Shown here: in pieces, positions 2,651 to 37,511 of the stretch
Numbering within the stretch: position 1 is the first letter of the stretch
Layout: each line of letters begins with the position of its first letter
Source: Candidatus Adlerbacteria bacterium
GTDB taxonomy: Bacteria > Patescibacteriota > Minisyncoccia > Phycocordibacterales > SBAW01
Assembly: GCA_037135035.1 (NCBI GenBank)
Contig: JBAXLB010000001.1
Coordinates: 23,102 to 87,101 of the forward strand
Direction of reading: 5' to 3'
DNA: 64,000 nt
Program-made: the position numbers and the translations under genes
The notes under the pieces: generated by a model
What the model was told of the DNA's origin: nothing
Database searches by the model: none
What the model saw: only the letters and a program-made list of their open reading frames with translations

Positions 2651-2665
2651 ATAGCTGAATAGTAC

Positions 2666-3559: not shown

Positions 3560-3583
3560 ATGGTACGTGAGCCGGTCAATGTG

Positions 3584-4519: not shown

Positions 4520-4539
4520 ATTGTTGTATGATATCGCAT

Positions 4540-5670: not shown

Positions 5671-5731
5671 TGAGGTTCCATCATACTCCGATATATGAGA
5701 CACGAGGTCAAGGTATAGTGCTCTAAAGAAG

Positions 5732-6364: not shown

Positions 6365-6373
6365 AATTTTATT

Positions 6374-7630: not shown

Positions 7631-7694
7631 GACGGTACCAGAAGTATAACTGTTCTTTGGTGTAAAAAGGTACTTCTGCTACAATGCCCTTTAT

Positions 7695-11011: not shown

Positions 11012-11202
11012 TTTTTTATTTTTTTTAAATTTAAAAAATAAAAAAGTTATCCACAGAATAAAAATATTTTTCATTGTATCTGTATCGTATGTATTCGATA
11101 CTTGTGTGTAGAGCATCGAGATTGTATATGCCCTTGTCCGCGGACAAACATACACAAGGTCGGTCGATGTCCAGACAACTTGCGACGCGAGTCGCCAAAA
11201 TT

Positions 11203-11247
11203 ATGGCAGCAAAGAAAAAGAAAGCAGCAAAAAAGAAGCGCAAATAG
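11203..11247 (+). CDS. Tiny Lys-rich ORF (MAAKKKKAAKKKRK) inside a structured intergenic transcript. Coding status uncertain.
   Basis: ATG...TAG, 14 codons. It is followed by a hairpin and a terminator. No homolog recognised. Confidence 0.15.
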   Translation: MAAKKKKAAKKKRK

Positions 11248-11302
11248 TCGCGTTTCCGTTTTCAATATACAATTGAAAACGTTGATCCTCTCGAAAGAAA
11301 AG

Positions 11303-11331
11303 TCTTCCGCCTCAGGCGGAGGATTTTTCTT
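11303..11331 (+). terminator. Rho-independent terminator-like hairpin (tccgcc-tca-ggcgga + T-run) 40 nt upstream of secA
   Basis: GC stem followed by 'TTTTTCTTT', seen directly in the sequence. Confidence 0.5.
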
Positions 11332-11373
11332 TATGGCGTTTCTCGGGCAAAAAAATACGCAATATGTTATTCT

Positions 11374-13851
11374 GTGCACATGTTTTCGCTTAGCAGCATC
11401 TTTGGTGATTCCAGTAAAAAGGTCATTGCAGAGAGCCAAAAAACAGTTTCTGCCATAGGCGCTCTCGAGGCTGAATATCAGGCCTATTCAGACACGACCC
11501 TTGCAGATAAGACTGTAGAATTTCGCCTACGCCTTGAGCGGGGCGAAACACTTGACGCCTTGTTGCCAGAAGCTTTTGCTGCAGTGCGGGAAAGTGCGCG
11601 CCGTACCCTGCATTTGCGCCCGTTTGATGTACAGATGGTCGGCGGTATAGTGCTCAACAACCGCGGCATTGCCGAAATGAAGACAGGTGAAGGTAAGACG
11701 CTTGTCGCAACACTCCCTGCATATTTAAATGCTCTGGCAGGAAAAGGAGTCCACGTTATTACTGTTAACGACTATCTCGCACGGCGCGATGCTGTGTGGA
11801 TGGGGCAGGTATATGCCGCACTGGGAATGTCGCTCGGTGTTATTAACGGGGATGCGTCGTATGTCTATGATGCATCACATTCGGAAAATGATGCGATACG
11901 TGACGAAGAAGGAAGCTTCCGTGTACTGTACGAATTTTTGCGCCCGTGTTCACGGCGCGAGGCATACGAAGCAGACATCACATACGGCACTAATAGCGAA
12001 TTTGGGTTCGACTATCTGCGCGATAATATTTCGTATAATTCAAACGAGCTGCGTCAGCGCGGACACTATTTTGCTATTGTCGACGAAATCGACTCGATTT
12101 TAATTGACGAAGCGCGCACTCCACTTATTATTTCGGCTCCTGCGCAGGAGTCGGAGGACTTGTACCGGCAATTTGCCGACATTGCTGCCAAGTTAAACTC
12201 TGACACTGACTACACCGTCGACGAAAAACAAAAAGCGATACAACTCACCGATACTGGTATTGAACATGCAGAAAAATTGCTGGGTATAGAAAATATCTAC
12301 ACCGAAAAAGGTATCAAGTATGTGCACCATTTAGAAACTGCTGTTCGCGCACGTGCATTGTTTATGCGCGACAAAAGCTATGTGGTAAAAAATGGGGAAG
12401 TTATTATTGTCGACGAGTTTACAGGCCGCATGCAGCCGGGCCGTCGTTGGTCGGAAGGCTTGCACCAGGCAATTGAGGCAAAAGAACATGTTCCCGTACA
12501 AAAAGAGTCGCGCACGTTTGCGTCTATTACGTACCAAAACTATTTCCGCCTGTATGAAAAGCTTGCCGGCATGACCGGTACCGCAAAAACCTCTGCTGAG
12601 GAATTTTATAAAGTATACGGGTTGGAGACAGTAGAGATCCCGACTAACCGGGACGTTGTGCGCGCCGACCGCAACGACCAGATATTCCAAACGGAACAAG
12701 GTAAATTCAAAGCACTCGCACGCAAAATTAAAGAGCTGCATGCAAAGGGGCAGCCGGTGTTGGTGGGCACCGTTTCTATTGAAAAGAACGAACTCCTTTC
12801 TGCATATTTAAAAACAGAAGGCGTCCCGCATGAAATCTTGAATGCAAAAAACCACGAACGTGAGGGCGAAATTGTCGCCTCTGCTGGGCACAAAGGTAAG
12901 GTTACTGTTGCAACTAACATGGCTGGCCGTGGTGTGGACATTAAACTGGGTGGAATTTCTGCAACTAAAGAAGAGTCGGACGAGATAAAAAATATGGGTG
13001 GGTTGTTTGTGCTCGGCACTGAGCGGCATGAAGCTCGTCGTATCGACAACCAACTCCGAGGGCGCTCTGGCCGCCAGGGCGACCCGGGCGAGACGCAGTT
13101 TTTTGTATCGCTCGAGGACTCTTTGATGCGCGTATTTGCCCCAGACTCTATAAAAGGTTTGATGGGCCGCTTTGGTATACCGGAAGACGAGCCTATTGAA
13201 AACTCGCTGGTGACCCGTGCGCTTGAAAGTGCGCAGACAAAAATTGAAGGTTTTAACTTTGATGCACGCAAGCATGTGCTCGAATTCGACAACGTGCTCG
13301 ACCGCCAGCGCCGTGCCGTGTATGAGCGCCGCCGTAAAGTGCTTGTCGGTTCACTCGACGAAGTTGAAGACGTATTGAAAGAATTAGCTGCTACAAGTGA
13401 AGAAGCAGTGCAATTACTGTCCAAAAAAGAAGTTGAATTTGGTCGCGAAGAGTTTTTGGGTACTGCACGCAATGTTGTCCTGCAAACACTCGACCTGCTG
13501 TGGGTGGAGCATTTGGAGTCGATGGAGTACTTGCGGGGCAGCGTTAACTTGCGTGCCTACGGCCAGCGTGACCCACTGACCGAATACCGTAAGGAAGGTA
13601 CGCGTATGTACAAAGAGCTGGAATATATGCTCGCCGCCCGTGTGTTTGAAATTTTGGACGGTTTGGTAAAAAATGCAGTACAGCCGATGCCACTACCGAC
13701 ACCAGTTGTTACACTTTCTGCATTGCCCGACGGCGTCGTTGACGAAGTTGGCCGCAATGATATGTGCCCATGCGGTTCTGGTAAAAAATATAAAAACTGC
13801 GGCCTTAAAAATACTGAGGAGCATCAGAAGCTGACAGCCGAGAAAAAGTAA
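11374..13851 (+). CDS. secA: Preprotein translocase ATPase SecA
   Basis: DEAD-like motor motifs ('MKTGEGKTLVATLPAYLNAL', 'VTVATNMAGRGVDIKLG') and the C-terminal zinc finger 'CPCGSGKKYKNCG'. Confidence 0.95.
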   Translation: MHMFSLSSIFGDSSKKVIAESQKTVSAIGALEAEYQAYSDTTLADKTVEFRLRLERGETLDALLPEAFAAVRESARRTLHLRPFDVQMVGGIVLNNRGIAEMKTGEGKTLVATLPAYLNALAGKGVHVITVNDYLARRDAVWMGQVYAALGMSLGVINGDASYVYDASHSENDAIRDEEGSFRVLYEFLRPCSRREAYEADITYGTNSEFGFDYLRDNISYNSNELRQRGHYFAIVDEIDSILIDEARTPLIISAPAQESEDLYRQFADIAAKLNSDTDYTVDEKQKAIQLTDTGIEHAEKLLGIENIYTEKGIKYVHHLETAVRARALFMRDKSYVVKNGEVIIVDEFTGRMQPGRRWSEGLHQAIEAKEHVPVQKESRTFASITYQNYFRLYEKLAGMTGTAKTSAEEFYKVYGLETVEIPTNRDVVRADRNDQIFQTEQGKFKALARKIKELHAKGQPVLVGTVSIEKNELLSAYLKTEGVPHEILNAKNHEREGEIVASAGHKGKVTVATNMAGRGVDIKLGGISATKEESDEIKNMGGLFVLGTERHEARRIDNQLRGRSGRQGDPGETQFFVSLEDSLMRVFAPDSIKGLMGRFGIPEDEPIENSLVTRALESAQTKIEGFNFDARKHVLEFDNVLDRQRRAVYERRRKVLVGSLDEVEDVLKELAATSEEAVQLLSKKEVEFGREEFLGTARNVVLQTLDLLWVEHLESMEYLRGSVNLRAYGQRDPLTEYRKEGTRMYKELEYMLAARVFEILDGLVKNAVQPMPLPTPVVTLSALPDGVVDEVGRNDMCPCGSGKKYKNCGLKNTEEHQKLTAEKK

Positions 13852-16207: not shown

Positions 16208-17569
16208 ATGAGCGAATATAGGCCCACAATAGGCTTGGAAATACATGCCGAACTGAACACCTACACCAAGATGTTTTGTGGGTGCCTAAATAATGCGGAC
16301 GAAAAGAGCCCAAACGTGAACATCTGTCCTGTTTGTATGGCGCACCCAGGGACACTGCCCGTTATAAACAAAGCGGCCGTCAGCCACGTGTTGCGTATGG
16401 GCGTGGCGCTTGGCTCAAAACTTGCTGACTATACCGAGTTTGACCGTAAGAGTTATTTTTACCCAGACATCCCAAAGGGATATCAAATTAGCCAATTTGC
16501 ATACCCGCTAGTGCAAGGCGGGTCGCTGAAGGGGATAGAGATTACCCGCATCCATTTAGAAGAGGACACAGCGCGTTCGCAGCATGTCGGCGAGACGAGT
16601 CTCGTAGACTTTAACCGTGCAGGTGTGCCGTTGATGGAACTTGTGACTGAGCCCGTGATACACACCGCAGAAGACGCCGGTGCGTTTGCTCGCGAGTTGC
16701 AGTTGTTGCTTCGCTACCTAGGTGCCTCGGAGGCAAATATGGAAAAAGGCGAGATGCGTGTCGAGGCCAATATCTCTGTCAGCAAGACAGATACCTTCGG
16801 TACAAAAGTGGAAGTTAAAAACCTCAACTCGTTTCGCTCGGTTGAGCGAGCTATCGCATTTGAAATTGCTCGGCAAGTCGAGGTACTTGAAGGTGGGGGA
16901 CAGGTGGTCCAGGAGACCCGCGGGTGGAATGAAGGGAACCAGACAACTTTCTCTCAACGTAAAAAAGAGTCGAGTCACGACTACCGCTATTTCCCGGACC
17001 CCGACTTGCCAAAACTCGTGCTGTCGGAACTACCAGAATTTTCTACCGACTCTATTACAAAAGAGTTACCTGAACTGCCGTGGCAAAAACGCGAGCGTTT
17101 GAAGAGTCTCGGATTTTTACAAGAGCAAGACATCGAGCAGTTGGTGGGCGACTTTGAGTTGTCGGTCCTATTTACAGAGATAGAAAAAAAATTGACCCAA
17201 CCCGAACTACTCAAAATTGCTGCAAACTTTATACTCAACGACATCGCTGGACAGCGAAAGAAAAAACCAGAATGGTTGCCGCGCACTGAACTTATCATTG
17301 AGGTGGTAGAAAAATATGCTGAAGGGAAGTTGGCATCGCCGCAAGCAAAGGCGTCGATCCTTGCGGGGATATTGGTTGCGACTATAGACGAGAGTACGCT
17401 CCCGGCGCTTGTTCAAAAAATAGTTGATGCAAACCCTGTAGTGGTTGCGGAGTACAGAGCTGGGAAGGAAGCGGTACTTCAATTTTTAGTAGGGCAAGGT
17501 ATGAAGGAGACCAAAGGTTCCGCTAACCCGGGCACATTGGCCGAGGAATTTAAAAAGGCTCTCAAGTAG
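16208..17569 (+). CDS. gatB: Asp-tRNA(Asn)/Glu-tRNA(Gln) amidotransferase subunit B
   Basis: 'TIGLEIHAELNTYTKMFCGC' is the GatB N-terminus. Full-length homology pattern. Confidence 0.9.
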   Translation: MSEYRPTIGLEIHAELNTYTKMFCGCLNNADEKSPNVNICPVCMAHPGTLPVINKAAVSHVLRMGVALGSKLADYTEFDRKSYFYPDIPKGYQISQFAYPLVQGGSLKGIEITRIHLEEDTARSQHVGETSLVDFNRAGVPLMELVTEPVIHTAEDAGAFARELQLLLRYLGASEANMEKGEMRVEANISVSKTDTFGTKVEVKNLNSFRSVERAIAFEIARQVEVLEGGGQVVQETRGWNEGNQTTFSQRKKESSHDYRYFPDPDLPKLVLSELPEFSTDSITKELPELPWQKRERLKSLGFLQEQDIEQLVGDFELSVLFTEIEKKLTQPELLKIAANFILNDIAGQRKKKPEWLPRTELIIEVVEKYAEGKLASPQAKASILAGILVATIDESTLPALVQKIVDANPVVVAEYRAGKEAVLQFLVGQGMKETKGSANPGTLAEEFKKALK

Positions 17570-17593
17570 GAGATATCAAAATACATCAAAAAA

Positions 17594-17617
17594 CTCGGGG
17601 GTAACCCCGAGTTTTTT
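17594..17617 (+). terminator. Rho-independent terminator after gatB (ctcgggg-gtaa-ccccgag + TTTTTT)
   Basis: Perfect 7-bp GC stem, tetraloop and T6 run. Confidence 0.7.
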
Positions 17618-17639
17618 GATGCTGTATACTAGTCTGTAT

Positions 17640-18371
17640 ATGGATGAGCTAGAAATCTCGGGTAAGCGATACATCTCGTCTAAACGTATTGCTAAAGAAA
17701 ACAAGTACCACTCCGACTATATCGGCCAGCTTATACGTGCAGGTAAAGTTGCTGGTACCAAGGTAGGCAGGGCGTGGTACGTGGAGGAAGCGTCGTTTGC
17801 AGAGTATCTGAACAAAGAGCACAAGATCTATTCTGCTCCCACCCCTTCTGAAAAACCCTCGGTCGCTGCTGTGACTGTAGAAGAGACTCCACTTCCCGTA
17901 GACCTTGAAGCAAAAGAAGCTGAAGAAAAAAATATAATCCAATTGCATGTTATGCCCGAGGAAAAAGTGGAAGAAGTTCTTGAGCAAGAAATATCGACAC
18001 CTGTTGCGGTGTACACGCCTCCAATAAAAAAAACAGGCCTTACCTATATTGCAGACTCGAGCCCTTTGTTTCCTGCAATTTCCAGACGCACAAAACCTCT
18101 TCCTGTAGCTGTAGTGGAAGAGCCTGAAGAAATATACAGAGAAGTTTTGGTAGAAAGAGTGCCTACCAAACGAGCAAAAGAATCAAATAAAAAAATAGTA
18201 GTGTCAGCCTTTTCGTTTCTTGTGTTGAGTGGTATTTTATTTGCTGTTGCTTTGTACGGCTCACTGAACGTTACTACAACGCTTATTGTTGAGAAAGGGA
18301 AATCAGCAAGTGTAGTTCTTTCAGGAAATAACGCACTCTGCTTCATTTTTAATACTTGTCAAAAGATATAG
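17640..18371 (+). CDS. Membrane-anchored protein with N-terminal excisionase/HTH_17-like domain, paralogous to the N-terminus of the giant protein
   Basis: 'ISSKRIAKENKYHSDYIGQLIRAGKVAGTKVGRAWYVEE' aligns with residues 13-53 of the 18802 protein. A C-terminal TM helix is 'VVSAFSFLVLSGILFAVALYG'. The ORF track starts at 17616 (TTG). Confidence 0.6.
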   Translation: MDELEISGKRYISSKRIAKENKYHSDYIGQLIRAGKVAGTKVGRAWYVEEASFAEYLNKEHKIYSAPTPSEKPSVAAVTVEETPLPVDLEAKEAEEKNIIQLHVMPEEKVEEVLEQEISTPVAVYTPPIKKTGLTYIADSSPLFPAISRRTKPLPVAVVEEPEEIYREVLVERVPTKRAKESNKKIVVSAFSFLVLSGILFAVALYGSLNVTTTLIVEKGKSASVVLSGNNALCFIFNTCQKI

Positions 18372-18442
18372 ATACGAGCAGTTTGTTGTCTGAACAGAAA
18401 GAGAGTTTTTCCATGTAGGGCAGAGCTGCTGACATACGTAAC

Positions 18443-18461
18443 CTCCTTCGGGAGGGTTTTT
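18443..18461 (+). terminator. Rho-independent terminator (cctcc-ttcg-ggagg + TTTTT)
   Basis: GC stem plus T-run 70 nt after the stop of the 17640 gene. Confidence 0.6.
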
Positions 18462-18801
18462 AATGTTTATATTTCACCTCTGATAGCCGAGATATCGTTT
18501 AAACAAGGTATAAAAAGTTTATTTTGCTTCAGTTCTCGTCTAGTAGAGATAAATCATTTTTTTATAAAAAATCTAGAAGTAAAAAACTTAGAGACAGATA
18601 AAAATGCTTACACAACTGTTGAGTTTTAGTATGTATATAGATTGTAAAGTTTCACTAAAATATTTTTTATGTGTAGATGAAGTTTTTTATTTCTATCCAC
18701 AGTTTTTTGAAATTTTTTTGTAAAATAATATTCGTTTTGCTCGTACAATGTAGGGCAGTGCTTCCTCCGAAATAACTGAGTAAACAAAAGACACATCGCC
18801 C

Positions 18802-21800
18802 TTGAACACATTACTTTCACAACATGGTGAGCAAATGCTTTCAGCCCGTAAGGTAGCTGAACGTTTGGGTTGCGCCCAGGACTATGTTTCCAAGCTCTGC
18901 CGTGAAGGCAAGCTTGCGGGGAAACAAATTGACGGAGCGTGGTTTATAGAACAGGAGTCAATTTCTACATTTGAAAAAATGCGAGAGGTGGCAAAAATAG
19001 CTCGTGCAGAGGCTCTCGCAGACCAACGCCGAAAGGAAAATAAAGAATATCAAATACAGCGCGCGGGAGAATTTAAAAAACAATTTTTCGCACGGGCTGT
19101 GGGCGCGGTACGTACGGGTGTGTTTTTTGCTGCAGGGTCGGCGCTGCTTCTAGGTTCGGTTGTATTTGCGGGAGAACACGGGAAGGTAAACACTGTACAG
19201 GAAACAGCCGCACATACGCAGCAGGTAGGTACATCTGTTGCACAACATAGTGCGCTCTTTTTTGGAACGCCAACAACATCTGTTGCACTGTCTGCGGCAG
19301 TTGGGGAAACCGCTGCCGCGGCGGTCGGTAGTTTTTTCTCAAGAGTAATTTCATATTTTTTTGCTGCACCAGCAGCGCACTATGTTGTCGCACCGGAAAA
19401 CCCAACTGCATATGTTCCGCAGCAAGTTACTGAAACACAAAGTTCTGCACCGGGCCCTGGCGCGCCAGTTGCCCCGACTAAAACTGTTGTAGTCCAGCAA
19501 AATACGTACCCTGTTATCCAGCGCACGCTTGAGCGTGTCGTGTCGGTTGGTGGCATCAGTGATGCAGAACTTACGGATAGGTTGAACCAACTTAACAACA
19601 AACTACAGTCGCAAATTTCCACCATTGCAAACCCAGGGTACGGAAGCCCGCGTGGGAATTTTGATTTTTCTCAAGCAGTAAATAATCTTTCAAACGTAAC
19701 CGTACATGGAGTTAGCGGTTTAACTGATGCGGACATCCCTGACACTATTTCGCTCTCTGGGGTAACTATTGGAGGTGCCACGATTTCAAGTTTTACGGGT
19801 ACTGGGCTTTCTGTTGTAAACGGAGTGCTCACTGCGTCTGGCGGCTCGGGTTTTTCTACAACGTCTGCCGACTACTACGTCAACGCGTCTTCAACGATAC
19901 CAAAAACGTATAGCGACAATGTTTTTACTGGAGGAAATATTTTTGGTAACTCAACAACTACAAATGCCACAACAACCAATTTATACATAGCAGGTTCAGT
20001 GCGCGGCGGAGGGCTCACTACGTCGTGTATTGGCTCGGGAGACAAAATTATATGGGACGCGACAACGGGCCAATTTGGTTGCGGTACGGACGCAGGAGGT
20101 TCGGGAAGCGGAATATCGGGACTAAAAGCCCAGTATGGTACGGCCCAAACTGGTGCAACACAAACACTTGCAACGTCTACCTCTGGTACCGACTTTACTA
20201 TCACCTCGGCAGGCGACATCCATACATTTAACTTGCCATCCGCGTCGGCATCGAACCGCGGCCTTTTGACTGCGGCTGACTTTACAACGTTTAACAGTAA
20301 ACAGTCGGCACTTTCATTTGCGTACCCGCTGCTTAATTCTGCGGGAACTATTTCGCTGGCGTTTAGTACGACAACTGCAAACACATGGAGCGCGCTCCAA
20401 ACCTTTACGTCGGGCTTCCTTGCAGCTGCATCATCGACTGTAAACAATACTCTTGCTGTTACGGGTGCAACGACGCTTGGCTCGACATTGAACGTACTAG
20501 GGCAGACAACACTCGCTACGTCGCTCAGTGGCCTGCTTAAAGCAACGGCCGGAGTTGTCTCTACTGCGACTGCAGGTGTCGACTACTTAACCTCGGCAAA
20601 TGTATTTAGCTATTTGTTCCCAGGTAATGCAACGTCAACACAGCTGACATTTAACGGCGGCTTCCTCTCAACAGCATCATCAACAATCAACAGCACCTTC
20701 CATATTGGCGGTCTTTCAGACGGCGCCCTCGCAGTCTTCGGAGGCCTTGTTTCGTCAGGTGCCACAACAACTGCAGGTACGGGCCTTACCTACAGTGGCA
20801 ATGCATTTAACGTAAACAGTATTCAAAGCATTAGTAAACTTTCTAACTTGGCGTCTGCTGGTTTTGTCAAAACATCAAGCGACGGAACGCTTTCGGTAGA
20901 CACAGCGACATATCTCACGTCTGCACTTACATCGATTGGTCCGGCAGGACAAACAACAACAGGCGCTGCCGTAACCCTTGCGTCGTCAACTGCAGGAACT
21001 GACTTTACTATCACAGGTTCGGGTTCAACACTTACGTTCAACCTTCCAACTGCGTCTGCATCTAACAGAGGACTTCTCTCGAGTACTGACTGGAATACAT
21101 TTAACAACAAGGGAAATGTTGGGTATCCGTTCGCTCTCTCGGGTAATGCAACGTCAACTCTCACACAATTTAATGCAGGTCTTACTGCATTCGCTTCCTC
21201 AACTATTGGAAGCGGCACACAAAGTGGAGGTCTTACTATCTTCGGTGGTGCAACAACAACTGCGAACGCGTACTTCGGTGCGGCTATTACAGGGGCAACA
21301 ACGTTTACATTGCCGACACTTGGAACAGCGGCTGGAGCATTTCTTGCAGTAGATGCAAATGGACAGATTATTGCCACGACAACACCGAGTGGTGGTGGAG
21401 GTGGTTCGGGTACAGTAACCAACATTGCTACAATATATCCGTTGCTTGGAGGCCCTATTACAAACACCGGCACATTGTCGCTTGCGTTTGGTACTACCAC
21501 CGCAAATATTTGGGGTTCGCTGCAAACATTTTCTGCAGGGTTCCTTGCTGCAGCCTCTTCGACAGTTAACGGTACGTTTGTAGTGACCGGGCAAACAACG
21601 CTTGCGTCGTCGCTCAATGGGCCGCTGCAAGCAAACCAAGGTCTTGTGTCGGCAACAAGCAGTGTCGGTACACTGTACGGCGGTACTGGAGTTACGTCGT
21701 ATACAACGGGAGATATTTTGTATGCAGACGCTACCAACCATCTTGCAAAATTAGGGATTGGCAGCACAGGCAGTGTGTTGAAAGTTGCTGGAGGTCTGCC

Positions 21801-24800
21801 TGGATGGGGACTCGACGCAACGGGCGGCGGCTCGGGTGGAGGGAGCTGGTCTACAACGACGTCACAAGTTGCGGGTGAACTTATAAACTACTCAAACAAT
21901 TCGACTGACATTGTAACTATTGGTAACAACGCAACAACTAGTGCAGCGTTTTGGTTTGACCCGACGGCTCTTGTCGGATACATCTCAAATAAATTGGGCA
22001 TTGGTACGTCCACTCCCTCACAAGCGCTTTCAGTACAAGGCAACAGTTATGTCTCGGGAACGTCCTTCTTTGGTGGGGCAGTGACAGCAACATCGACGCT
22101 TAACGTAACGGGGCTCTCTACACTAGGCTCTTTGAATGTTACTGGCGCAACCACACTCGCCACGTCACTCACGGGCCTCCTTAAGGCGTCATCAGGTGTT
22201 GTTTCAACCGCGGCATACACCGACTTCCCAACAATTGCTGCAGGCACAATACTTGCAAACGCAACAGGCGGGACTGCAGCACCTACGGCCGTTGCAACAT
22301 CAACGTTGTTTGGTACAGGCACGGGTGGCCAAGTACTTACCTGGTCTGCAGGAGTTCCTACATGGGCTGCTACCACCACCTACAGCGCACCACTTGTCTT
22401 TTCAAACGGAAACGTAAGTTGTACGGCTGCCTCGGCCGGTGTTGCGGGCTGCCTTAGCGGTACCGATTGGAGTACATTCAACAACAAACAAGCAACAATT
22501 GCTGCGGCATGGCCTATTACACTTACGGGTGCAACAGTGGGCTTTAATGGCCTTTCAACCTCTACAGCCGCAGTTGTGGGCAACATCCCGTACTACTCAG
22601 GCGTAAACACATTCGCAAACGTTGCAACGTCTGCACCGGCAATTGGTTCGGTACTTACATACTCAGGCACATTGGGAAGCCTCGTGGGTGGTGTAGGAGG
22701 TACCTTCGGTATTGCAAACACGTCTATAACCAATGCAATGCTTGCAGGCTCCATTGCCTACAGCAAACTTGCGTTGACCGGCGCAATCTTGAACGCAGAC
22801 TTGGCAGGCAGTATTGCGTACAGCAAGCTCTCACTGACAGGTGCTATTTTGAACGCTGACCTAGCCGGAAGTATCGCTGCGTCAAAACTCGTTGGCACCG
22901 ATATAACTACTGTTGGCACAGTAACTTCGGGTACGTGGAGTGGTTCCTTTGGCACAGTATCGGGTGCAAACCTCACCAACCTCACCGCTGCAAATGTCAC
23001 GGGATCGCACACCCTCCCAGACGGGGTATTAAGCACGAATGTGCCTCTTTTGAACGCTGCAAATGCGTTTAGCAGTACGTTGAATGTTGCGGGTATCTCT
23101 ACCCTCGCAGGCGTTCTTTCAACGGCCTCATCTACCTTCACAAATTCTTTGCATATATCTTCACTTTCAGACGGAGCCCTCGCAGTCTTTGGCGGTCTCG
23201 TCTCATCAGGTGCAACTACAACTGCAGGCACTGGTCTTACATACAGTGGCAATGCATTTAACGTAAACAGCATACAAAGCATCAGCAGACTCTCGAACTT
23301 GGCAACAGCGGGCTTTGTAAAGACTGCAAGTGATGGAACGCTGTCAGTTGATACCAGTACCTACCTTACCTCGGCTGTCACCTCCGTCACCGGCACCTGG
23401 CCGATTATTTCTTCAGGCGGCAACACGCCAGCGATATCATTCGGCGGCCTCTCAACTTCCACAGCTGCAGTTGTCGGTAACATACCGTACTTCTCTGGTG
23501 CAAATACATTCGCAAATGTTGCAACTTCAGCCCCAGCTATCGGCTCCGTCGTAACATACTCAGGTACACTCGGCAGCTTTGTAGGAGGCGTAGGAGGTAC
23601 CTTCGGTATTGCAAACACGTCGATTACGAATGCGATGTTGGCAGGCTCCATTGCCTACAGCAAGTTGTCTTTGACTGGTGCAATTCTCAATGCCGATCTC
23701 GCGGGTTCGATTGCCTATAGCAAACTCTCATTAACAGGCGCAATACTTAACGCAGACTTGGCGGGCTCTATAGCTGCATCAAAATTGGTTGGTAGTGACA
23801 TTGCAACTGTAGGAACAATCGGCACTGGTGTATGGCAGGGAACTAAGATTGGTCTTGCATATGGCGGCACTAACGCAGACCTTTCTGCGACCGGTGGTGC
23901 ATCGCAAGTACTGCGCCAGTCATCATCAGGCGGTGCTATCACTGTCTCGCAACTTGCAGCGTCTGACCTTTCAAACGGTACGACTGGAAGTGGTGCAGTG
24001 GCTCTCGCAGGAAGTCCGACGTTCAGTGGCAATGCCGCATTTGGAAATGCATCGACCACACAAATAGGCTCAACAGGTAATGCGTATTTTGCGACAAGTG
24101 CAGGTAGTGTCGGTATTGGCACTACGACTCCAACCTCTGCACTTTCTGTCCAAGGTAATTCATATCATTCAGGTACTGCATTCTTTGGTGGAGCAATCAC
24201 TGCAACATCAACGCTTACTCTTTCGGCACTTTCAAACGGAGCCCTCGCAGTCTTTGGCGGTCTCGTCTCATCAGGTGCAACTACAACTGCAGGCACTGGT
24301 CTTACATACACAGGTAATGCATTTAACGTAAATACAACACAGAATGTTGCAAAACTTTCAAACCTCACAACAAACGGTTTTGTAAAAACAAGCGGCAGCG
24401 ACGGAACATTGTCTGTAGACACAAGCACGTATTTGACGAGCGCACTCACATCAATTGGCCCTACAGGACAGACAACAACAGGTCCTGCAGTAACGTTTGC
24501 ATCATCAACGACAGGTACTGACTTTACTATCACAGGATCTGGCTCAACACTAACCTTTAACCTACCAACTGCCTCGGCTTCTAACCGCGGACTTCTCTCG
24601 AGTACTGACTGGACGACCTTCAACAACAAGGGTTCAGGTACGGTCACTGCGGTTTCTGTCGCATCTGCAAACGGCTTTGCGGGCTCGTCGTCTGGTGGTG
24701 CAACGCCGGCACTTACGCTTACAACAACAGTTACAGGACTCTTGAAAGGAAACGGCACTGCAATTTCTGCAGCAGCCCTCACAGATTTCCCAGCAATTGC

Positions 24801-27003
24801 CGCAAACACGGTGCTTGCAAACAATACCTCCGGCTCTGCGGCACCGACCGCCATTGCGACGTCGTCGTTGTTCCAAAATGCGAGCGCAACACTCTCTGGC
24901 CTTTTGACATCAACCGACTGGACGACCTTTAATAACAAAGGTTCGGGCACGGTCACTTCGGTTACTGGCACCTGGCCTATCATCTCGTCAGGTGGTGCAA
25001 CACCAGCAATCTCCTTCGGTGGCCTCTCAACATCAACTGCCGCAGTCGTGGGCAATATCCCGTACTTCTCTGGAGTAAATACATTCGCAAACGTTGCAAC
25101 AACAGCACCGGCCATTGGCTCAGTGCTCACATATTCGGGAACCCTAGGAAGCCTTGTAGGCGGAGTAGGTGGTACCTTCGGTATCGCAAATACATCGATC
25201 ACCAACGCGATGCTTGCAGGCTCAATTGCCTACAGCAAGCTCTCACTGACAGGTGCTATTTTGAACGCTGACCTAGCCGGAAGTATCGCTGCGTCAAAAC
25301 TCGTTGGCACCGATATAACTACTGTTGGCACCATTACTTCCGGTACCTGGAGTGGTTCGTTTGGTGCAGTCAGCGGCGCAAACTTGACCAACCTGACCGC
25401 TGCAAATGTTACTGGTTCTCACACACTTTCGGACGGGGTACTAAGTACCAATGTGCCACTTTTGAACGTGGCAAATACATTTAGTAGTACGGGAATTACG
25501 TCCTTTGGAGGAAGTGTTGGCATTGTAACCACAAACCCGCTTGCAAAACTGGAAGTGGTAGGCTCATCGCAAGCTGCCACCGACCGCAGTACACATTTTG
25601 AGCTTTCAACCGGTACGGGTTTGCTCACAGACGAAAAACTCGTCTTTGGTGTCCACGACGGCGACTACAGCTGGATCCAAGCTGTTAAGAACGGTACCGG
25701 ATACCGCAACTTGGCACTCGAACCAGGTGGCGGCAACGTTGGTATTGGTACCACTACGCCTGCAAGTAAATTATCGATAGAGGCTGCGGTAACAGCGGGT
25801 ACAGCTCCTGGTCTGTTGCTTAGCAATACAAATGGCTCTGTCGGGTCGGGTGCGGCAATTGATTTCTATTTTGGCGCATATAACAAGAGTTCTCGTATTT
25901 ACAGTTACGCCGTCAATGCCAATCAAGGGGATCTTCGTTTCGCTACAGCTAACGGAAGCAGTTTTGCAGATGCAATGACGATTCTCGGTAGTAATCAGTA
26001 TGTCGGTATTGGCAGCACATCGCCGTCGCGTGCAATGTCTATACAGTCGGCAGTGTCGACTGCACAGATGACAGTTGCGTACGACACCAGCCGCTATACC
26101 GACTTCCTGACAAATTCGACAGGTGACTTAACTATCACCCCACAAGGTCAAGATGCTACGCTCTACGACAGCAACTTGTGGATCTGCTCAGGTGTTGCAT
26201 GCCCAACAGGCACACCAACGGGTACGGGTAACATTATTGCCGAGACAAACATCGGCATCGGTACCACCACGCCGAAGTATCGCCTTACTATAGAGTCACA
26301 AAGCACTTCGGAAGACTTGTTCCAAATTGCAACATCGTCGAACCAAAAAGTATTTATCGTCGACCGGAACGGCAGTGTGGGTATAGGTACTACCACGCCA
26401 ACACGTCAGTTCTCCATCTCCGACAGGCTCTTTGTCGGTGCCGGGGGCGTAAGCGGCATGGGTACAGCAACCTCGACCTTTATGGGTGACATAAAAATCA
26501 CCGGTAAACTCGATGTTGGTACTATCGACCCGGTCTACACAATTGACGGCGTGAAGTATGCAACCTACGGTCACTCAACTGTTGGTATTAAAGAAGAGGC
26601 TGTCGAGGTGCTTGAAGTGACAAACAAAAACCCAAAGACCGGCAAATTTGAGATAAAGATTTCGTTTAAAGATCTCGACAAGGGTTCGGACCTCTGGCTC
26701 TTCTACCAAGTGACAGACTTCGGTACCAACTGGAAGAATTTGGTCATTAACCTCACGGCATCGTTTGACGGTAGTGTCTTCTACACCAAAGTACCAAACG
26801 AAGCAGCGGTTATAATCTCTACCTCGCAACCAGGGGAAGTGTCCGCTCGGTTTATTGCAAACCGCTACGACTCGAGCAAGTGGCCAAACATCCGCCCAGA
26901 CCAAAGTGGTCCGTATAAGGGCCATGAGCTTGAGACAAGTGCAGGGCAAGGTATGCCGCTGGGCACAGAGCCGATAAGCTCTGCGCTCGACGCAGCGCTT
27001 TAG
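18802..27003 (+). CDS. Giant (2733 aa) cell-surface fibre/adhesin-like protein. It has an N-terminal excisionase-like HTH module, a single TM helix and a large T/S/G/A/N-rich repetitive ectodomain with tail-fibre-like 'VGIGTTxP' motifs.
   Basis: One uninterrupted 8.2-kb ORF. TM segment 'GVFFAAGSALLLGSVVFAG' at ~aa 100. Three families of long internal repeats. C-terminal repeats 'GNVGIGTTTPASKL', 'GSVGIGTTTPTRQF' and others typical of phage tail-fibre/tailspike-like beta-structures. Confidence 0.85.
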   Translation: MNTLLSQHGEQMLSARKVAERLGCAQDYVSKLCREGKLAGKQIDGAWFIEQESISTFEKMREVAKIARAEALADQRRKENKEYQIQRAGEFKKQFFARAVGAVRTGVFFAAGSALLLGSVVFAGEHGKVNTVQETAAHTQQVGTSVAQHSALFFGTPTTSVALSAAVGETAAAAVGSFFSRVISYFFAAPAAHYVVAPENPTAYVPQQVTETQSSAPGPGAPVAPTKTVVVQQNTYPVIQRTLERVVSVGGISDAELTDRLNQLNNKLQSQISTIANPGYGSPRGNFDFSQAVNNLSNVTVHGVSGLTDADIPDTISLSGVTIGGATISSFTGTGLSVVNGVLTASGGSGFSTTSADYYVNASSTIPKTYSDNVFTGGNIFGNSTTTNATTTNLYIAGSVRGGGLTTSCIGSGDKIIWDATTGQFGCGTDAGGSGSGISGLKAQYGTAQTGATQTLATSTSGTDFTITSAGDIHTFNLPSASASNRGLLTAADFTTFNSKQSALSFAYPLLNSAGTISLAFSTTTANTWSALQTFTSGFLAAASSTVNNTLAVTGATTLGSTLNVLGQTTLATSLSGLLKATAGVVSTATAGVDYLTSANVFSYLFPGNATSTQLTFNGGFLSTASSTINSTFHIGGLSDGALAVFGGLVSSGATTTAGTGLTYSGNAFNVNSIQSISKLSNLASAGFVKTSSDGTLSVDTATYLTSALTSIGPAGQTTTGAAVTLASSTAGTDFTITGSGSTLTFNLPTASASNRGLLSSTDWNTFNNKGNVGYPFALSGNATSTLTQFNAGLTAFASSTIGSGTQSGGLTIFGGATTTANAYFGAAITGATTFTLPTLGTAAGAFLAVDANGQIIATTTPSGGGGGSGTVTNIATIYPLLGGPITNTGTLSLAFGTTTANIWGSLQTFSAGFLAAASSTVNGTFVVTGQTTLASSLNGPLQANQGLVSATSSVGTLYGGTGVTSYTTGDILYADATNHLAKLGIGSTGSVLKVAGGLPGWGLDATGGGSGGGSWSTTTSQVAGELINYSNNSTDIVTIGNNATTSAAFWFDPTALVGYISNKLGIGTSTPSQALSVQGNSYVSGTSFFGGAVTATSTLNVTGLSTLGSLNVTGATTLATSLTGLLKASSGVVSTAAYTDFPTIAAGTILANATGGTAAPTAVATSTLFGTGTGGQVLTWSAGVPTWAATTTYSAPLVFSNGNVSCTAASAGVAGCLSGTDWSTFNNKQATIAAAWPITLTGATVGFNGLSTSTAAVVGNIPYYSGVNTFANVATSAPAIGSVLTYSGTLGSLVGGVGGTFGIANTSITNAMLAGSIAYSKLALTGAILNADLAGSIAYSKLSLTGAILNADLAGSIAASKLVGTDITTVGTVTSGTWSGSFGTVSGANLTNLTAANVTGSHTLPDGVLSTNVPLLNAANAFSSTLNVAGISTLAGVLSTASSTFTNSLHISSLSDGALAVFGGLVSSGATTTAGTGLTYSGNAFNVNSIQSISRLSNLATAGFVKTASDGTLSVDTSTYLTSAVTSVTGTWPIISSGGNTPAISFGGLSTSTAAVVGNIPYFSGANTFANVATSAPAIGSVVTYSGTLGSFVGGVGGTFGIANTSITNAMLAGSIAYSKLSLTGAILNADLAGSIAYSKLSLTGAILNADLAGSIAASKLVGSDIATVGTIGTGVWQGTKIGLAYGGTNADLSATGGASQVLRQSSSGGAITVSQLAASDLSNGTTGSGAVALAGSPTFSGNAAFGNASTTQIGSTGNAYFATSAGSVGIGTTTPTSALSVQGNSYHSGTAFFGGAITATSTLTLSALSNGALAVFGGLVSSGATTTAGTGLTYTGNAFNVNTTQNVAKLSNLTTNGFVKTSGSDGTLSVDTSTYLTSALTSIGPTGQTTTGPAVTFASSTTGTDFTITGSGSTLTFNLPTASASNRGLLSSTDWTTFNNKGSGTVTAVSVASANGFAGSSSGGATPALTLTTTVTGLLKGNGTAISAAALTDFPAIAANTVLANNTSGSAAPTAIATSSLFQNASATLSGLLTSTDWTTFNNKGSGTVTSVTGTWPIISSGGATPAISFGGLSTSTAAVVGNIPYFSGVNTFANVATTAPAIGSVLTYSGTLGSLVGGVGGTFGIANTSITNAMLAGSIAYSKLSLTGAILNADLAGSIAASKLVGTDITTVGTITSGTWSGSFGAVSGANLTNLTAANVTGSHTLSDGVLSTNVPLLNVANTFSSTGITSFGGSVGIVTTNPLAKLEVVGSSQAATDRSTHFELSTGTGLLTDEKLVFGVHDGDYSWIQAVKNGTGYRNLALEPGGGNVGIGTTTPASKLSIEAAVTAGTAPGLLLSNTNGSVGSGAAIDFYFGAYNKSSRIYSYAVNANQGDLRFATANGSSFADAMTILGSNQYVGIGSTSPSRAMSIQSAVSTAQMTVAYDTSRYTDFLTNSTGDLTITPQGQDATLYDSNLWICSGVACPTGTPTGTGNIIAETNIGIGTTTPKYRLTIESQSTSEDLFQIATSSNQKVFIVDRNGSVGIGTTTPTRQFSISDRLFVGAGGVSGMGTATSTFMGDIKITGKLDVGTIDPVYTIDGVKYATYGHSTVGIKEEAVEVLEVTNKNPKTGKFEIKISFKDLDKGSDLWLFYQVTDFGTNWKNLVINLTASFDGSVFYTKVPNEAAVIISTSQPGEVSARFIANRYDSSKWPNIRPDQSGPYKGHELETSAGQGMPLGTEPISSALDAAL

Positions 27004-27016
27004 AAATAGGTACCTT

Positions 27017-27919
27017 TTATTTCGCTGCTTTTGGATTGTTCTTAAAAAAGTCCCAGGCTCGGTCGGTAGCGGCTGCAGTGTATGTGTGCGCGAGCCCTGT
27101 AATATATATGCCGCGTACTTCAGTGCTACTAGCACACGACACAAAAGTTTCTGTCCGTACGCCTTGATCGTTGCGTTGCTCGGCAGGGGTAGGACAATGT
27201 TCAAACGCTGCCCATAGTGCAACAGGATTTTTTGCAGGAATAGGTTCTTGCCGAGTTTTTGCTTGCGGCATTGGGTCGGATGTCCCAACGATAGAAAGGA
27301 GAGATATCGGGTTTTGTGGGGCAGGGAAGGATGTATACAAAAGGCCTGCAACAGGTGCTATGGCTGCGAGTGTGTCCGAGAGCTCACTCCCTAAACGGTA
27401 GGCAAATGTAGCGCCGTTTGAAAAACCAGTGGCAAATATGTGTTCCCGATTAACGTTGTTACTAAAAGTAATATCGCCGAGTATTGCACGTACATAGGCA
27501 ATGTCGTCCACACCGTCGTGCGTAATAGGGGGAATGTTTGCACCCACATGCCACAGGCGGATATTACGCGCTGGGTCGCCCAGCGTGAGGTTGAGAGGCT
27601 TCCTAGGGTCTTCCAGCGTGCCTTGTGCAAACACTACAATAAAGCCTTCGCGCTGTGCTTTTTCCTTCCAGCCCGAATACTGCGCCATCAGTTCAGCAGA
27701 GCCAAGTGGCCCGCCGCCGCCATGGAACACTAGTACCACGGGGAGAGATGAACTTGTGTGTTGTGGTGCGTAGATTAAATATTCACGCTCAAGATTTTGA
27801 ACGTGTATAGAAACAGTACGAAGTGTGTACGAGTTTGAGAACAGAAAAAAATATAGTGCGCATGCACTACTTGCGAGGAGTACTGCGGCAGAAATAAAAA
27901 TAATGTGTGTTCGTGTCAT
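27017..27919 (-). CDS. Secreted alpha/beta-hydrolase, PHB-depolymerase/feruloyl-esterase-like (LpqC family)
   Basis: Signal anchor, 'VVLVFHGGGG' oxyanion region and 'ATGFSNGA' nucleophile elbow (GxSxG). Confidence 0.65.
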   Translation of the reverse strand: MTRTHIIFISAAVLLASSACALYFFLFSNSYTLRTVSIHVQNLEREYLIYAPQHTSSSLPVVLVFHGGGGPLGSAELMAQYSGWKEKAQREGFIVVFAQGTLEDPRKPLNLTLGDPARNIRLWHVGANIPPITHDGVDDIAYVRAILGDITFSNNVNREHIFATGFSNGATFAYRLGSELSDTLAAIAPVAGLLYTSFPAPQNPISLLSIVGTSDPMPQAKTRQEPIPAKNPVALWAAFEHCPTPAEQRNDQGVRTETFVSCASSTEVRGIYITGLAHTYTAAATDRAWDFFKNNPKAAK

Positions 27920-28875
27920 CGCAGAATTTTTTTAAACATCACATCAAGCACCGGCAGGCTGCACAGAAATTCTTTTACAGAAGTTTTTGCAGGTGCAAAA
28001 GGCGACGCGAGTAGTAGCAGTGACCACAAAAATATATGGGACACAAACCCAATGTTTATCACTAAGTAATTACCTACATGGAAGAGTATAAGCAGTAGTC
28101 CCCAGGTGCGATGCAGCTTTGGGCGAAATGCGACAAAAAAAGAAAAAAGTAATAAGTAGAGGGTAAAAAGGTACCACGGGTATATAAGCAGGTAGTGTTC
28201 GACTGCCCAAGGCCCAAGCGCCGTGTGCACACCCGTAAGCAGCTGCCGGTCGGCGATTTGGAGCGCTGCCGAATGGAGCCCGAAAAAGTTTGACTGCCCG
28301 GCTACTATCTGTGCCGCGGCACCATAGAGTTTGCCGAGCCCGCCCATTGTGTAGGTAAGCAGGTTTTCCACCTGGACAGCAAAAAAAACGAGTAAAAATT
28401 TCATCCGTACAACAACAGGTGCGTCAGTTTTTTCGTATCCGTATGGCAAAAAAATAAATAAAAACGATGTGAGCAGCAACCCATATCCGTCTACGTCGAG
28501 CTGCAGTATCGATATATAAAGCGCGCAAAATTCAAACAACGCCAGGAACGAAAGTATGCGCGCAAGACGCCAGTGGGGCTTCCACGCAGCAAGTATGCTG
28601 GTGGTGATAAAAAATACTCGCACGCACGCATATGCTGTGGCGAAGCCGATAAGAGGGAACCAGCGTATAGGCCAGGGTGTTTCTATTTGGGTCTGCGCGC
28701 CAAATGATGTGTCCCAGGTAAAAAGTGCAACAGAAATAAAGAGCAGGAAAAAATAATACATCTGCACTACCGTGCGTGCAGAAAAAAACACCTGCATGTC
28801 TGCGGCATAGTGTTCAAGACGTCGGAGGGGCGAGTCTTTAAAAATATATTCGCGTAGTTGAACTAGATATTTCAT
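27916..28875 (-). CDS. Polytopic membrane protein, HTTM-like (vitamin-K-dependent gamma-carboxylase-related fold)
   Basis: Eight or more hydrophobic segments across 319 aa. The HTTM assignment is tentative. Confidence 0.3.
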   Translation of the reverse strand: MKYLVQLREYIFKDSPLRRLEHYAADMQVFFSARTVVQMYYFFLLFISVALFTWDTSFGAQTQIETPWPIRWFPLIGFATAYACVRVFFITTSILAAWKPHWRLARILSFLALFEFCALYISILQLDVDGYGLLLTSFLFIFLPYGYEKTDAPVVVRMKFLLVFFAVQVENLLTYTMGGLGKLYGAAAQIVAGQSNFFGLHSAALQIADRQLLTGVHTALGPWAVEHYLLIYPWYLFTLYLLLFSFFVAFRPKLHRTWGLLLILFHVGNYLVINIGFVSHIFLWSLLLLASPFAPAKTSVKEFLCSLPVLDVMFKKILR

Positions 28876-29405
28876 GGTGTGTGGTATGTGCCTAATATGT
28901 CGACGCGTTCAAGTGCTCCTGTTTTAAAGCGCTCTATGGGGTCGTAAGTTATTTTAACCACTTGCCAGGAAAGATCTTTTGGAAAATACGCGGCTTCGAG
29001 CTCTGCTCGTACTACGTCGGCCCCTGCAGTGTCGCCCGCCACAAGGGCTTTCCCCAAACGGCGGATACCATCGCGTGCGCGGTTTGTCTGTGCGTCTCCA
29101 ATAATGTCATTCGCTTCGCCAAATAATTCTGGGGGAGTGAGTGCTTTTCCTTTATACGTTACAAGCCGCACGGTGTACTGCGTGCTGAAGTGTTCGTTTG
29201 GGACAAGTGCAAATAAAAACCAATGAAAAAAAGGTGGGAAGCTTTTGTCGTGTGCTGAAGAAAAAAGGAAAAAAGTAGAAAGTCCAATAACAAAATAAAG
29301 CCCTAAAAATATACTCAGTAGTGTCCGCAGTCGCGATACCTCGTGAGTGTCTTTGGGAGAGAGGTTCATGCGTAAGAGAATAGCATGCGCTACACTGGAC
29401 TGCAT
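28872..29405 (-). CDS. Hypothetical membrane-anchored protein
   Basis: ORF with TM 'LLSIFLGLYFVIGLSTFFLF'. The start is probably the internal Met. No recognised domain. Confidence 0.35.
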   Translation of the reverse strand: MQSSVAHAILLRMNLSPKDTHEVSRLRTLLSIFLGLYFVIGLSTFFLFSSAHDKSFPPFFHWFLFALVPNEHFSTQYTVRLVTYKGKALTPPELFGEANDIIGDAQTNRARDGIRRLGKALVAGDTAGADVVRAELEAAYFPKDLSWQVVKITYDPIERFKTGALERVDILGTYHTP

Positions 29406-29406
29406 G

Positions 29407-30918: not shown

Positions 30919-30934
30919 GGCATGAGTACAATGA

Positions 30935-31495
30935 GTGCATATGGAACATGTATCTCATCACGACGAGCTTACCGCGAAAGACCCGGTCGTTGTTGTCACA
31001 ACAGGCCCTGTGTTTACTGTAGACCGCACGAAGCTCCCGACTGTAACGGACCTTCTCGGTGATGAATGGACGGTATGGAAGGGGCCGAAAGAAGGTGAAG
31101 GCCTTGAAGGAGAAGAAGACCAAGACGCTCGCGCAACTGCAGTGAACGCTTTTGATTTTAGCCGCATGAAATTTGTCCACGGTTTTAAAGATGGCGAAGA
31201 CTCTATCGATGGCGAGCAGAAACTAGAACGCTTAAAAGTGCTCCCCGACGTGCGTCCTGACTTTGCATTTGGAATAGGATTGTTTTTAGAGCAGGGGCAG
31301 ACAACACTGCGCTGGCTCTACGACAACCACGGCATCACCTGGTTTGAAATCCCGGGTACGGTGATGTGTCACGACGGCGGGTACCGATACTTTTTAATAC
31401 TGAGCAGGGAAGGCAGCGGTGCGTGGCATTGGGACTATCGCTGGCTTAAACACGAACGCCGTCGCGGCTGGTTGGCACCTATGTTTTCTCTATAG
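30935..31495 (+). CDS. Hypothetical cytoplasmic protein (acidic, no TM)
   Basis: 186-aa ORF. No recognisable domain. Confidence 0.35.
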   Translation: MHMEHVSHHDELTAKDPVVVVTTGPVFTVDRTKLPTVTDLLGDEWTVWKGPKEGEGLEGEEDQDARATAVNAFDFSRMKFVHGFKDGEDSIDGEQKLERLKVLPDVRPDFAFGIGLFLEQGQTTLRWLYDNHGITWFEIPGTVMCHDGGYRYFLILSREGSGAWHWDYRWLKHERRRGWLAPMFSL

Positions 31496-31945: not shown

Positions 31946-31949
31946 GAGG

Positions 31950-32387: not shown

Positions 32388-32412
32388 ATACTGTGCAGTA
32401 TACTAGAACTCT

Positions 32413-33873: not shown

Positions 33874-33883
33874 CATTCTGTAG

Positions 33884-36006: not shown

Positions 36007-36010
36007 ACAA

Positions 36011-37483: not shown

Positions 37484-37511
37484 GTGGCGTTAGTATAGTA
37501 CGAAACGGCTC

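Follow-up and report, generated by a model that had tools for sequence, protein, structure and literature searches.

Why should two adjacent bacterial genes, one small and one giant, both encode membrane proteins that begin with a domain of the DNA-binding type? The question is raised by a 64,000-nucleotide stretch of a Candidatus Adlerbacteria genome (assembly GCA_037135035.1, contig JBAXLB010000001.1, positions 23,102 to 87,101; hereafter the window), in which a small gene, encoding the protein referred to here as S, is followed on the same strand by a gene encoding a giant protein, G. An initial annotation, made from these nucleotides alone, had viewed the two products as a paralogous pair of membrane proteins with cytoplasmic, excisionase-type helix-turn-helix (HTH) heads, the smaller being possibly a dedicated partner of the larger. 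We find that S and G constitute a conserved two-gene module of Paceibacteria-type bacteria belonging to the Candidate Phyla Radiation (CPR), and that they are paralogous membrane proteins with heads of the Xis/BldC type.

Residues 12-56 of S aligned without gaps to residues 2-46 of G (counted from the ATG at 18835; 13-57 when counted from the TTG at 18802, as in the initial annotation), with 14 of the 45 positions identical and 30 similar (BLASTP E=2e-8). In a six-frame translation of the entire 64 kb each head matched only the other (E=1.8e-8 and 3e-7), and no third copy of the head was present. Comparison of profiles built from 29 small-type and 47 giant-type heads with hhalign returned a probability of 99.1% over 47 columns (E=7.9e-19). 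The proposed homology of the two N-termini, and with it the status of S and G as paralogues, is therefore upheld by both pairwise and profile-profile alignment, and neither head is a low-complexity sequence. That the similarity might be due to chance or low complexity, with the S open reading frame (ORF) not being a real gene, is already refuted by these E-values, by the 520 homologues of S retrieved at E<=1e-3 (the best 120 of which mostly match over the full length), by the conserved start, -10 element and terminator of the small gene, and by a confidently modelled head fold. The S protein is also 100% identical to a hypothetical protein, WCK46_00210, of a Candidatus Adlerbacteria metagenome-assembled genome at NCBI.

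Head identity was 0.68 among small-type and 0.62 among giant-type sequences, against 0.36 between the types, and the S-to-G value was 0.36 whether the two heads were taken from the same genome or from different genomes. This equality points to an old duplication of which both copies have been maintained, and indicates that the two head types are separate orthologous lineages; it also ruled out concerted evolution, gene conversion or recent copying between the heads. The possibility that the small gene is a decayed piece of a duplicated giant was likewise discarded, given its conservation over the full length and its own promoter and terminator.

The pairing of the two genes was found to extend well beyond the window. 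Six contigs with S homologues (33-86% identity) shared the same order of gatB, a gap of ~70 nt, the small gene, a spacer of ~390-570 nt with 29-34% GC, and a giant gene whose length ranged from 2,640 codons to over 5,700; the corresponding spacer in the window is AT-rich and measures ~450 bp. A survey was then based on one genome per species of the GTDB, with 80 of 106 confirmed matches kept, and the titles of these records named Adlerbacteria, Paceibacterota, Nomurabacteria, Kaiserbacteria and others. In 59 non-redundant loci, with head types called by hidden Markov models of both heads, the next plus-strand ORF after the small gene carried an N-terminal giant-type head. Thirteen of these ORFs were complete (271, 306, 750 and 1,673-3,089 residues), and the remaining 46 ran off the end of their contig with up to 3,187 residues visible. 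Most surveyed loci lacking a typical giant head were simply short of downstream sequence; three (L061, L074 and L075) had a weaker head on the next large ORF, and in two (L014 and L069) no giant head was present within the downstream DNA at hand. Strict synteny of this kind supports the earlier suggestion that S is possibly a dedicated partner of the giant.

The giant-type head was also sought independently of synteny. Word-indexed searches, with either the giant N-terminus or a 47-sequence head profile, returned only six or seven short fragments and missed the query itself, such that an exhaustive profile search was needed; this covered 1.84 billion cluster representatives and gave 5,319 matches at E<=1e-3, with 670 at E<=1e-10. 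Among the best 150 of these 670, the head lay within the first ~190 residues in nearly all (exceptions P0262 and P0263), and many of the proteins were 2,000-5,800 residues long, many others being fragments at contig ends. Tandem heads precede the transmembrane (TM) helix of the giant in several Adlerbacteria-like genomes (L004, L006, L010, L018, L019 and L037), and tandem heads occur in the S protein of Kaiserbacteria-like genomes (L076, L080, L082-L084, L086 and L087). The giant head of the latter genomes retains an N-terminal MSDEIFFDG hairpin.

In a few genomes, the head gene after the small gene encodes only ~300 residues (L056, 10990-11952; L059, 6557-7453; P0124-P0126), comprising the head, a TM helix and a short outer domain ending in CLQGVCLT...TSTP. 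Genes for separate secreted proteins follow, and a further head gene, preceded by the promoter element described below, lies ~5 kb downstream. This arrangement may represent a split giant.

Both proteins are predicted to be single-pass membrane proteins with the N-terminus inside, each having one hydrophobic segment located after its DNA-binding-type domain (residues 88-114 in G). An excess of lysine and arginine on the N-terminal side of both TM segments (for S, four before and two after) predicts that both heads are cytoplasmic, and AlphaFold2 (AF2) modelled the segments as helices, in agreement with the topology proposed in the initial annotation. That annotation had also described each head as followed by a TM helix; such a helix lies close to the head only in the giant (~95-113), the TM helix of the small protein being C-terminal, ~130 residues past the head. 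The intervening linker of S (residues 62-180, ~120 residues) is disordered, whilst the AF2 model of the giant has an unbroken helix that runs from the head through a basic cytoplasmic stalk into the membrane, with a predicted local distance difference test score (pLDDT) above 90 up to residue ~80. The part of the giant outside the cell is 2,600 residues long here and up to ~5,800 in relatives, and is hypervariable between species, whereas the head, stalk and TM helix are conserved. Threonine, glycine, serine and alanine make up 53% of the residues of the giant and internal repeats are present in its body, for which PHROG, Pfam and PDB sequence searches returned nothing significant. Precomputed matches on giants at the same position in other genomes included Gp34_trimer, Peptidase_S74, LVIVD and Bact_surface_Ig-like domains, and it is on this composition, the repeats and these domains that we call the giant a fibre. 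In S, the conserved segments were the head, the linker motif LTYIxDxxPLFP, the TM helix and an outer VExGKPASV stretch.

The affiliation of the heads was assessed with profiles and predicted structures. Within the full-length proteins, HTH_17 (PF12728) scored 20.2 bits for S and 20.3 bits for G, both under the Pfam gathering score of 27 bits, whilst the isolated G head reached 28.8 bits (E=1.5e-6) and passed. Among the homologues, HTH_17 was matched at E<=0.01 by 44 of 47 giant-type heads and 28 of 48 small proteins. The sole NCBIfam match at E<0.01 for either head was TIGR01764, at 17.8 bits for S and 17.9 bits for G (E~3e-3), which did not reach the cut-off of 28.8, and S matched a PHROG excisionase family. 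Structures were predicted with AF2 from a 48-sequence alignment for S and from the first 320 residues for G; both heads were modelled with pLDDT above 90 (range for the S head 84-96), and both possess the two helices and beta-hairpin wing expected of the HTH_17 fold. The top PDB match of both heads in Foldseek searches was the excisionase Xis of mycobacteriophage Pukovnik (4j2n; with a root-mean-square deviation of 1.3-1.6 A across 45-47 columns, a target-normalised TM-score of 0.70-0.73 and a probability of 1.0), and further matches were BldC bound to DNA (6amk/6ama), RacA bound to DNA (5i44), TraN, pSK1 Par with centromere DNA, and RdfS. It is the consistency of these matches and their low deviation that constitute the fold evidence. 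The excisionase-type identity that had been proposed is hence supported by HTH_17, the sub-threshold TIGR01764 match, the PHROG family and models lying closest to Xis and BldC. We regard the S head as a divergent relative of HTH_17, its homology to the G head being firm.

In fold and sequence pattern the heads thus resemble Xis and the BldC protein of Streptomyces, both examples of the excisionase/BldC/MerR-type winged HTH with the same helix-helix-wing arrangement. Unlike these small and soluble proteins, the heads described here are fused to a TM helix and, in G, to an outer fibre of 2,600-5,800 residues. The S-type head further differs in having an extra N-terminal beta-hairpin, MDELEISGKRY, and in falling under both the Pfam and NCBIfam cut-offs. 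The S-type head has no cysteines, whereas the G head has two (C13, 18871-18873, and C22, 18898-18900; conserved in 92% and 88% of the 59 loci, respectively). One is located in the turn and the other close to where the second helix ends, and they might make up a redox or metal site, possibly one shared between paired heads.

Several features favour DNA binding by the heads. All of their good structural matches are DNA-binding proteins; exposed positions along one face of the second helix show little or no variation, these being Y27, Q30 and R33 in S and Y17, K20 and R23 in G (spaced i, i+3, i+6), to which S adds K41 and R44 in the wing; and the S head (residues 8-50) is strongly basic, with a mean net charge of +6.75 across the 59 loci. 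The tandem heads of some homologues also fit the manner in which Xis and BldC domains line up on DNA, where both proteins form head-to-tail arrays.

A candidate target is present in the promoter region of the giant gene. The sequence TATCCACA occurred in 55 of the 59 S-G spacers, always on the plus strand and usually ~150 nt before the head codons, and a conserved -10-like element exactly 50 nt downstream of the box would place the latter at roughly -62 to -55. A box was likewise found upstream of secA in 46 of 51 related loci, 300-340 nt before the gene and again 50 nt ahead of a -10-like hexamer; these secA copies were mostly GTTATCCACAG, and mostly the perfect DnaA-box 9-mer TTATCCACA. Over 1.07 Mb of loci, TATCCACA occurred 115 times on the plus strand and seven times on the minus strand, with ~16 expected per strand, and the plus-strand occurrences formed two clusters, before secA and before the giant. 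The 64-kb window contains seven copies, of which just two, those of the giant and secA promoters, are intergenic. The box also precedes the third head gene of the loci with a ~300-residue head protein (L056 and L059) and the head-bearing large genes of more distant lineages. A replication origin in the AT-rich spacer was considered and ruled out, as there is a single box, no switch in GC skew, and phasing of the box with the -10 element.

Our tentative preference, held with somewhat less than even confidence, is that S and G work as a pair of DNA-binding proteins tethered to the membrane, by which the giant gene is regulated or tethered. Both heads would bind DNA while attached to the membrane, as a pair or a small array, the G head being carried by a stiff helix, ~55 residues long, that passes on into its TM segment, and the more basic, near-invariant S head on a flexible tether of ~120 residues with a C-terminal TM anchor. 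The likeliest target would be the conserved, box-bearing promoter of the giant gene, and through such binding the making or exporting of the fibre would become coupled to transcription of the giant gene itself. Within this model we infer DNA binding by the heads, the box as target and the direction of regulation; since the box is also a textbook DnaA box, its link to the heads is likewise an inference, and we consider it rather unlikely that this is the site to which they bind. Should it be the target, the module would be an autoregulatory pair akin to ToxR and TcpP of Vibrio cholerae, two membrane-tethered factors that act together at one promoter. Those proteins and CadC are built on a similar logic, with a DNA-binding domain at the cytoplasmic N-terminus, a single TM helix and a portion beyond the membrane. 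They differ in having OmpR-type winged helices and small periplasmic sensors, whereas the heads here are of the Xis type, S is almost devoid of an outer domain and G bears a giant fibre; the OmpR-type Trans_reg_C domain was absent from the Pfam matches of both proteins, and membership of the ToxR/CadC group is not claimed.

A number of observations weigh against this preference. The isolated S head scored only 24.3 bits against HTH_17, below the gathering score. Foldseek E-values were weak (0.035-0.9), which we attribute to the queries being long and mostly disordered models, and PDB sequence searches with both head profiles found no match and thus no sequence-related solved structure. The G head is mildly basic, its mean net charge being +2.9 and falling to -1 in some species. 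The small gene lacks a box of its own; the box is near-invariant, as are the recognition helices, leaving no covariation by which to link them; and TATCCACA matches eight of the nine bases of the universal DnaA box, making DnaA an obvious alternative binder. Lastly, HTH domains can make protein-protein contacts, as is the case with RodZ and MreB.

The example of RodZ introduces an explanation that we consider unlikely, though one to be taken seriously, namely that the heads are protein-protein modules, contacting each other or a cytoskeletal, division or secretion partner, with S serving in assembly, anchoring or positioning. Like S, RodZ is bitopic with its N-terminus inside, having a cytoplasmic N-terminal HTH domain, which binds MreB, a linker and one TM helix. 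The modest charge of the G head would fit such a role, as would the LTYIxDxxPLFP motif of the S linker, which is typical of a docking peptide, and the residues conserved directly outside the membrane, VExGKPASV in S and SPFFG/ALFFG in G. The linker motif, in which Y136 and P145 are invariant, is set in an otherwise unconserved, disordered, acidic and proline-rich region, where AF2 confidence rises slightly to ~70; it is probably a docking site for a partner. Against a RodZ-like role, the HTH domain of RodZ is of the Xre type (HTH_25), its cytoplasmic linker is short and its periplasmic domain large, the reverse of S, with its outer tail of 33 residues. Neither HTH_25 nor the periplasmic DUF4115, the marks of RodZ, was detected in Pfam scans of the two proteins, nor did any other Xre-type family score above threshold. 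In addition, the close structural relatives of the heads are all DNA-bound or DNA-binding, the core of the S head is strongly basic (~+7), and the conserved box before G-head genes would be left unexplained.

Resemblance of the box to the DnaA consensus gives rise to a further explanation, in which TATCCACA is an ordinary DnaA box through which DnaA controls the giant gene and secA, and the heads bind some other ligand. This is a distinct possibility, albeit one that we doubt, and it is compatible with the heads acting either as protein-interaction modules or as chromosome anchors. The mostly perfect 9-mers before secA are in keeping with it, and so is the constancy of the box in distant lineages whose heads have diverged, as would be expected of a universal factor; regulation of promoters by DnaA acting at single boxes is known. 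However, nothing specific to DnaA accounts for the association of the box with head genes, which is apparent from its clustering, almost entirely on one strand, just before secA and G-head genes in the 1.07 Mb and from its recurrence before the third head gene. The window also has neither an origin-like cluster of boxes nor a switch in GC skew.

RacA of Bacillus subtilis, which tethers DNA to the cell envelope, attaching the chromosome at the cell pole, through a MerR-like winged HTH domain on a long helix, illustrates how the heads could bind DNA without regulating genes, either as a chromosome-envelope anchor or as a nucleoid organiser in a very small cell, with the box unrelated. We consider this improbable. 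The RacA-DNA complex was among the best fold matches of the G head, which similarly sits on a long helix (residues 40-110), and the module is core, syntenic and located beside the housekeeping genes obg, gatB and secA. RacA is, however, soluble, reaches the membrane via DivIVA and has no TM helix or extracellular part, whereas G is integral to the membrane with its outer part of 2,600 residues. It is not obvious why an anchor should require fusion to a surface fibre that is hypervariable, and a promoter-phased box tightly tied to G-head genes argues for a gene-specific role. As to the anchoring and regulatory roles that the initial annotation had left side by side, the DNA-binding ability of the structural relatives and the conserved box upstream of the giant together lead us to favour a DNA-related role over pure anchoring.

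A more speculative form of the membrane-tethered pair, to which we assign a still smaller likelihood, is that the giant head binds the TATCCACA box of its own promoter in cis during translation. Being the first part of the protein to leave the ribosome, the head would bind the box at about -60, and insertion of the TM helix would then tie the gene physically to the Sec translocon, with the stiff 8-nm stalk and the flexibly tethered S holding the promoter there. The same box would recruit the secA promoter, such that the 8-kb gene would be kept in one place with its mRNA, SecA synthesis and the export site, and this arrangement may feed back on transcription. In a Notch-like variant, contact with or pull on the fibre would change or release the head, and the adhesin would thereby report host attachment to the genome.

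Much of bacterial diversity falls to the CPR bacteria, or Patescibacteria; the majority are presumed to live on host cells to which they attach, and little is known of their regulation or attachment. Here, a core module of such ultra-small, uncultured bacteria, syntenic in at least 59 species-level Paceibacteria genomes, directly connects what is presumed to be the attachment fibre with an intracellular domain of the DNA-binding type. Should the heads bind DNA, the module would represent a membrane-tethered regulator with an excisionase fold fused to a giant adhesin, and would provide a simple route from surface to genome in organisms with very few classical signalling systems; the box shared with secA suggests a small regulon for fibre export. 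Giant surface proteins have been described in CPR bacteria and other episymbionts (e.g. Vampirococcus; PMC8080830), being very large, membrane-anchored, repeat-rich and presumed to act in host attachment. The literature searched made no mention of a cytoplasmic HTH head or a small paralogous partner on these giants, and our search, which did not cover all journals, found no description of HTH-headed CPR giants with a paired small paralogue. The individual parts (HTH_17, bitopic tethered DNA-binding proteins and giant adhesins) are familiar, whilst their combination and conserved pairing appear to be undescribed, to the extent that absence of evidence allows. The locus offers two domains of ~60 residues and two promoter fragments of ~100 bp as reagents.

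Table 1. Features of the two-gene locus and of the secA promoter, in window coordinates
Feature	Position	Strand	Description
TATCCACA box, murB-secA spacer	11048-11055	+	49-50 nt before -10-like GATACT/ATACTT
gatB	16208-17569	+	precedes small gene
Hairpin between gatB and small gene	17583-17622		18-bp stem, terminator-like, T/A runs on both sides
-10-like TATACT of small gene	17625-17630	+	9 nt before ATG, without Shine-Dalgarno sequence
Small gene (S protein)	17640-18371	+	243 residues from ATG; cytoplasmic head, disordered linker, C-terminal TM helix, 33-residue outer tail
S head, residues 1-61	17640-17822	+	AF2 beta-hairpin, two helices, beta-hairpin wing, helix; pLDDT 84-96
S linker motif LTYIADSSPLFP, residues 134-145	18039-18074	+	Y136 and P145 invariant; L134, D139 and P142 conserved in at least 90%
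S TM helix, residues ~188-210	18201-18269	+	sole hydrophobic segment; AF2 helix 183-209
Terminator-like hairpin CCTCCTTCGGGAGG and T-run, 3' of small gene	18442-18465	+	hairpin 18442-18455
Conserved island TAGCCGAGATATCG	18484-18497	+	intergenic, ~200 nt upstream of TATCCACA box; from spacer alignment
TATCCACA box of giant gene	18694-18701	+	8/9 bases of DnaA-box consensus TTATCCACA; 50 nt before -10
-10-like TACAAT of giant gene	18744-18749	+	box-anchored profile of 55 loci: tAaaat at +50..+55
Predicted 5' leader of giant gene	18750-18834	+	conserved CCGAAMT, AAACAAAAG and TTTCGG motifs
Giant gene (G protein)	18802-27003	+	2,722 residues from ATG 18835, 2,733 from TTG 18802
G head, residues 1-50	18835-18984	+	winged HTH; AF2 pLDDT 95-97; conserved cysteines C13 and C22
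G helix, residues 40-110	18952-19173	+	unbroken from head via basic cytoplasmic stalk into TM helix (~95-113)

The transcription signals of the locus (Table 1) agree with the earlier claim that terminators separate the small gene from both of its neighbours. The ~70-nt spacing between gatB and the small gene, which contains the first hairpin, was kept in related loci, and the sole signal of an Rfam scan across 17400-19200 was sub-threshold noise at the gatB terminator. A hexamer of the TATACT/TATAAT type ended 6-9 nt before an invariant ATGGAYGAR start in nearly all of the 59 loci; a -10 element adjoining the ATG, with no Shine-Dalgarno sequence, suggests that the small gene is transcribed as a leaderless mRNA. 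A hairpin with a T-run lay within 170 nt of the S stop codon in 38 of the 59 loci, as opposed to 5% of shuffled sequences, and this terminator makes S and G probably separate transcription units.

Within the spacer, the 8-mer CGAGATAT of the conserved island was present in 33 of 59 loci (at most 13 for any 8-mer in shuffled sequences) and occurs once in the 64-kb window. Most spacers have the motif CCGAGAT, in one orientation or the other, between -280 and -400, and at some loci it adjoins the -10 element of the small gene (e.g. L004 and L005: CCGAGATATACT). A direct repeat, ATGTAGGGCAG(A/T)GCT, has one copy just past the S stop codon, 5' of the terminator (18413-18427), and another at the predicted start of the giant transcript (18748-18762); it is not conserved in L001 and may reflect a local duplication or a short transcript.

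The leader motifs of the giant gene end directly before an ATG in most genomes. RNAalifold predicted no pairs for a consensus structure of this leader, and pairing between its CCGAA and TTCGG sequences was set aside, as these vary too little for a test and their complementarity is weak in the window. Most G homologues have a 14-residue extension ahead of MLSARK, the typical start being an ATG 14 codons upstream; the equivalent in the window is the TTG at 18802, 11 codons upstream, and the true start of the giant here (18802 or 18835) is consequently ambiguous. A conserved leader, ~270 nt long and with its start near GTAGAGCATCGAGAT in the murB-secA spacer (11056-11373), appears to precede secA, and an ORF at 11102-11458 overlaps it.

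Upstream of the small gene, the plus strand encodes a Wzy_C/TPR protein, murB, secA, a NUDIX gene, a DsbD/CcdA-type gene, obg and gatB. Beyond the giant, about 13 consecutive ORFs (186-558 residues; 27017-46346) were without a Pfam match at E<=1e-5, the one exception being a weak AMP-binding match, and the first three of those 3' of the giant (minus strand, 27017-29471) have counterparts of the same size and position in L001. A glycan-biosynthesis cluster (504-9989) precedes murB and encodes a GDP-mannose 4,6-dehydratase, an epimerase, a GT11 fucosyltransferase, a DegT aminotransferase, a flippase-like protein and the Wzy_C/TPR protein; its products could decorate the cell surface or the fibre.

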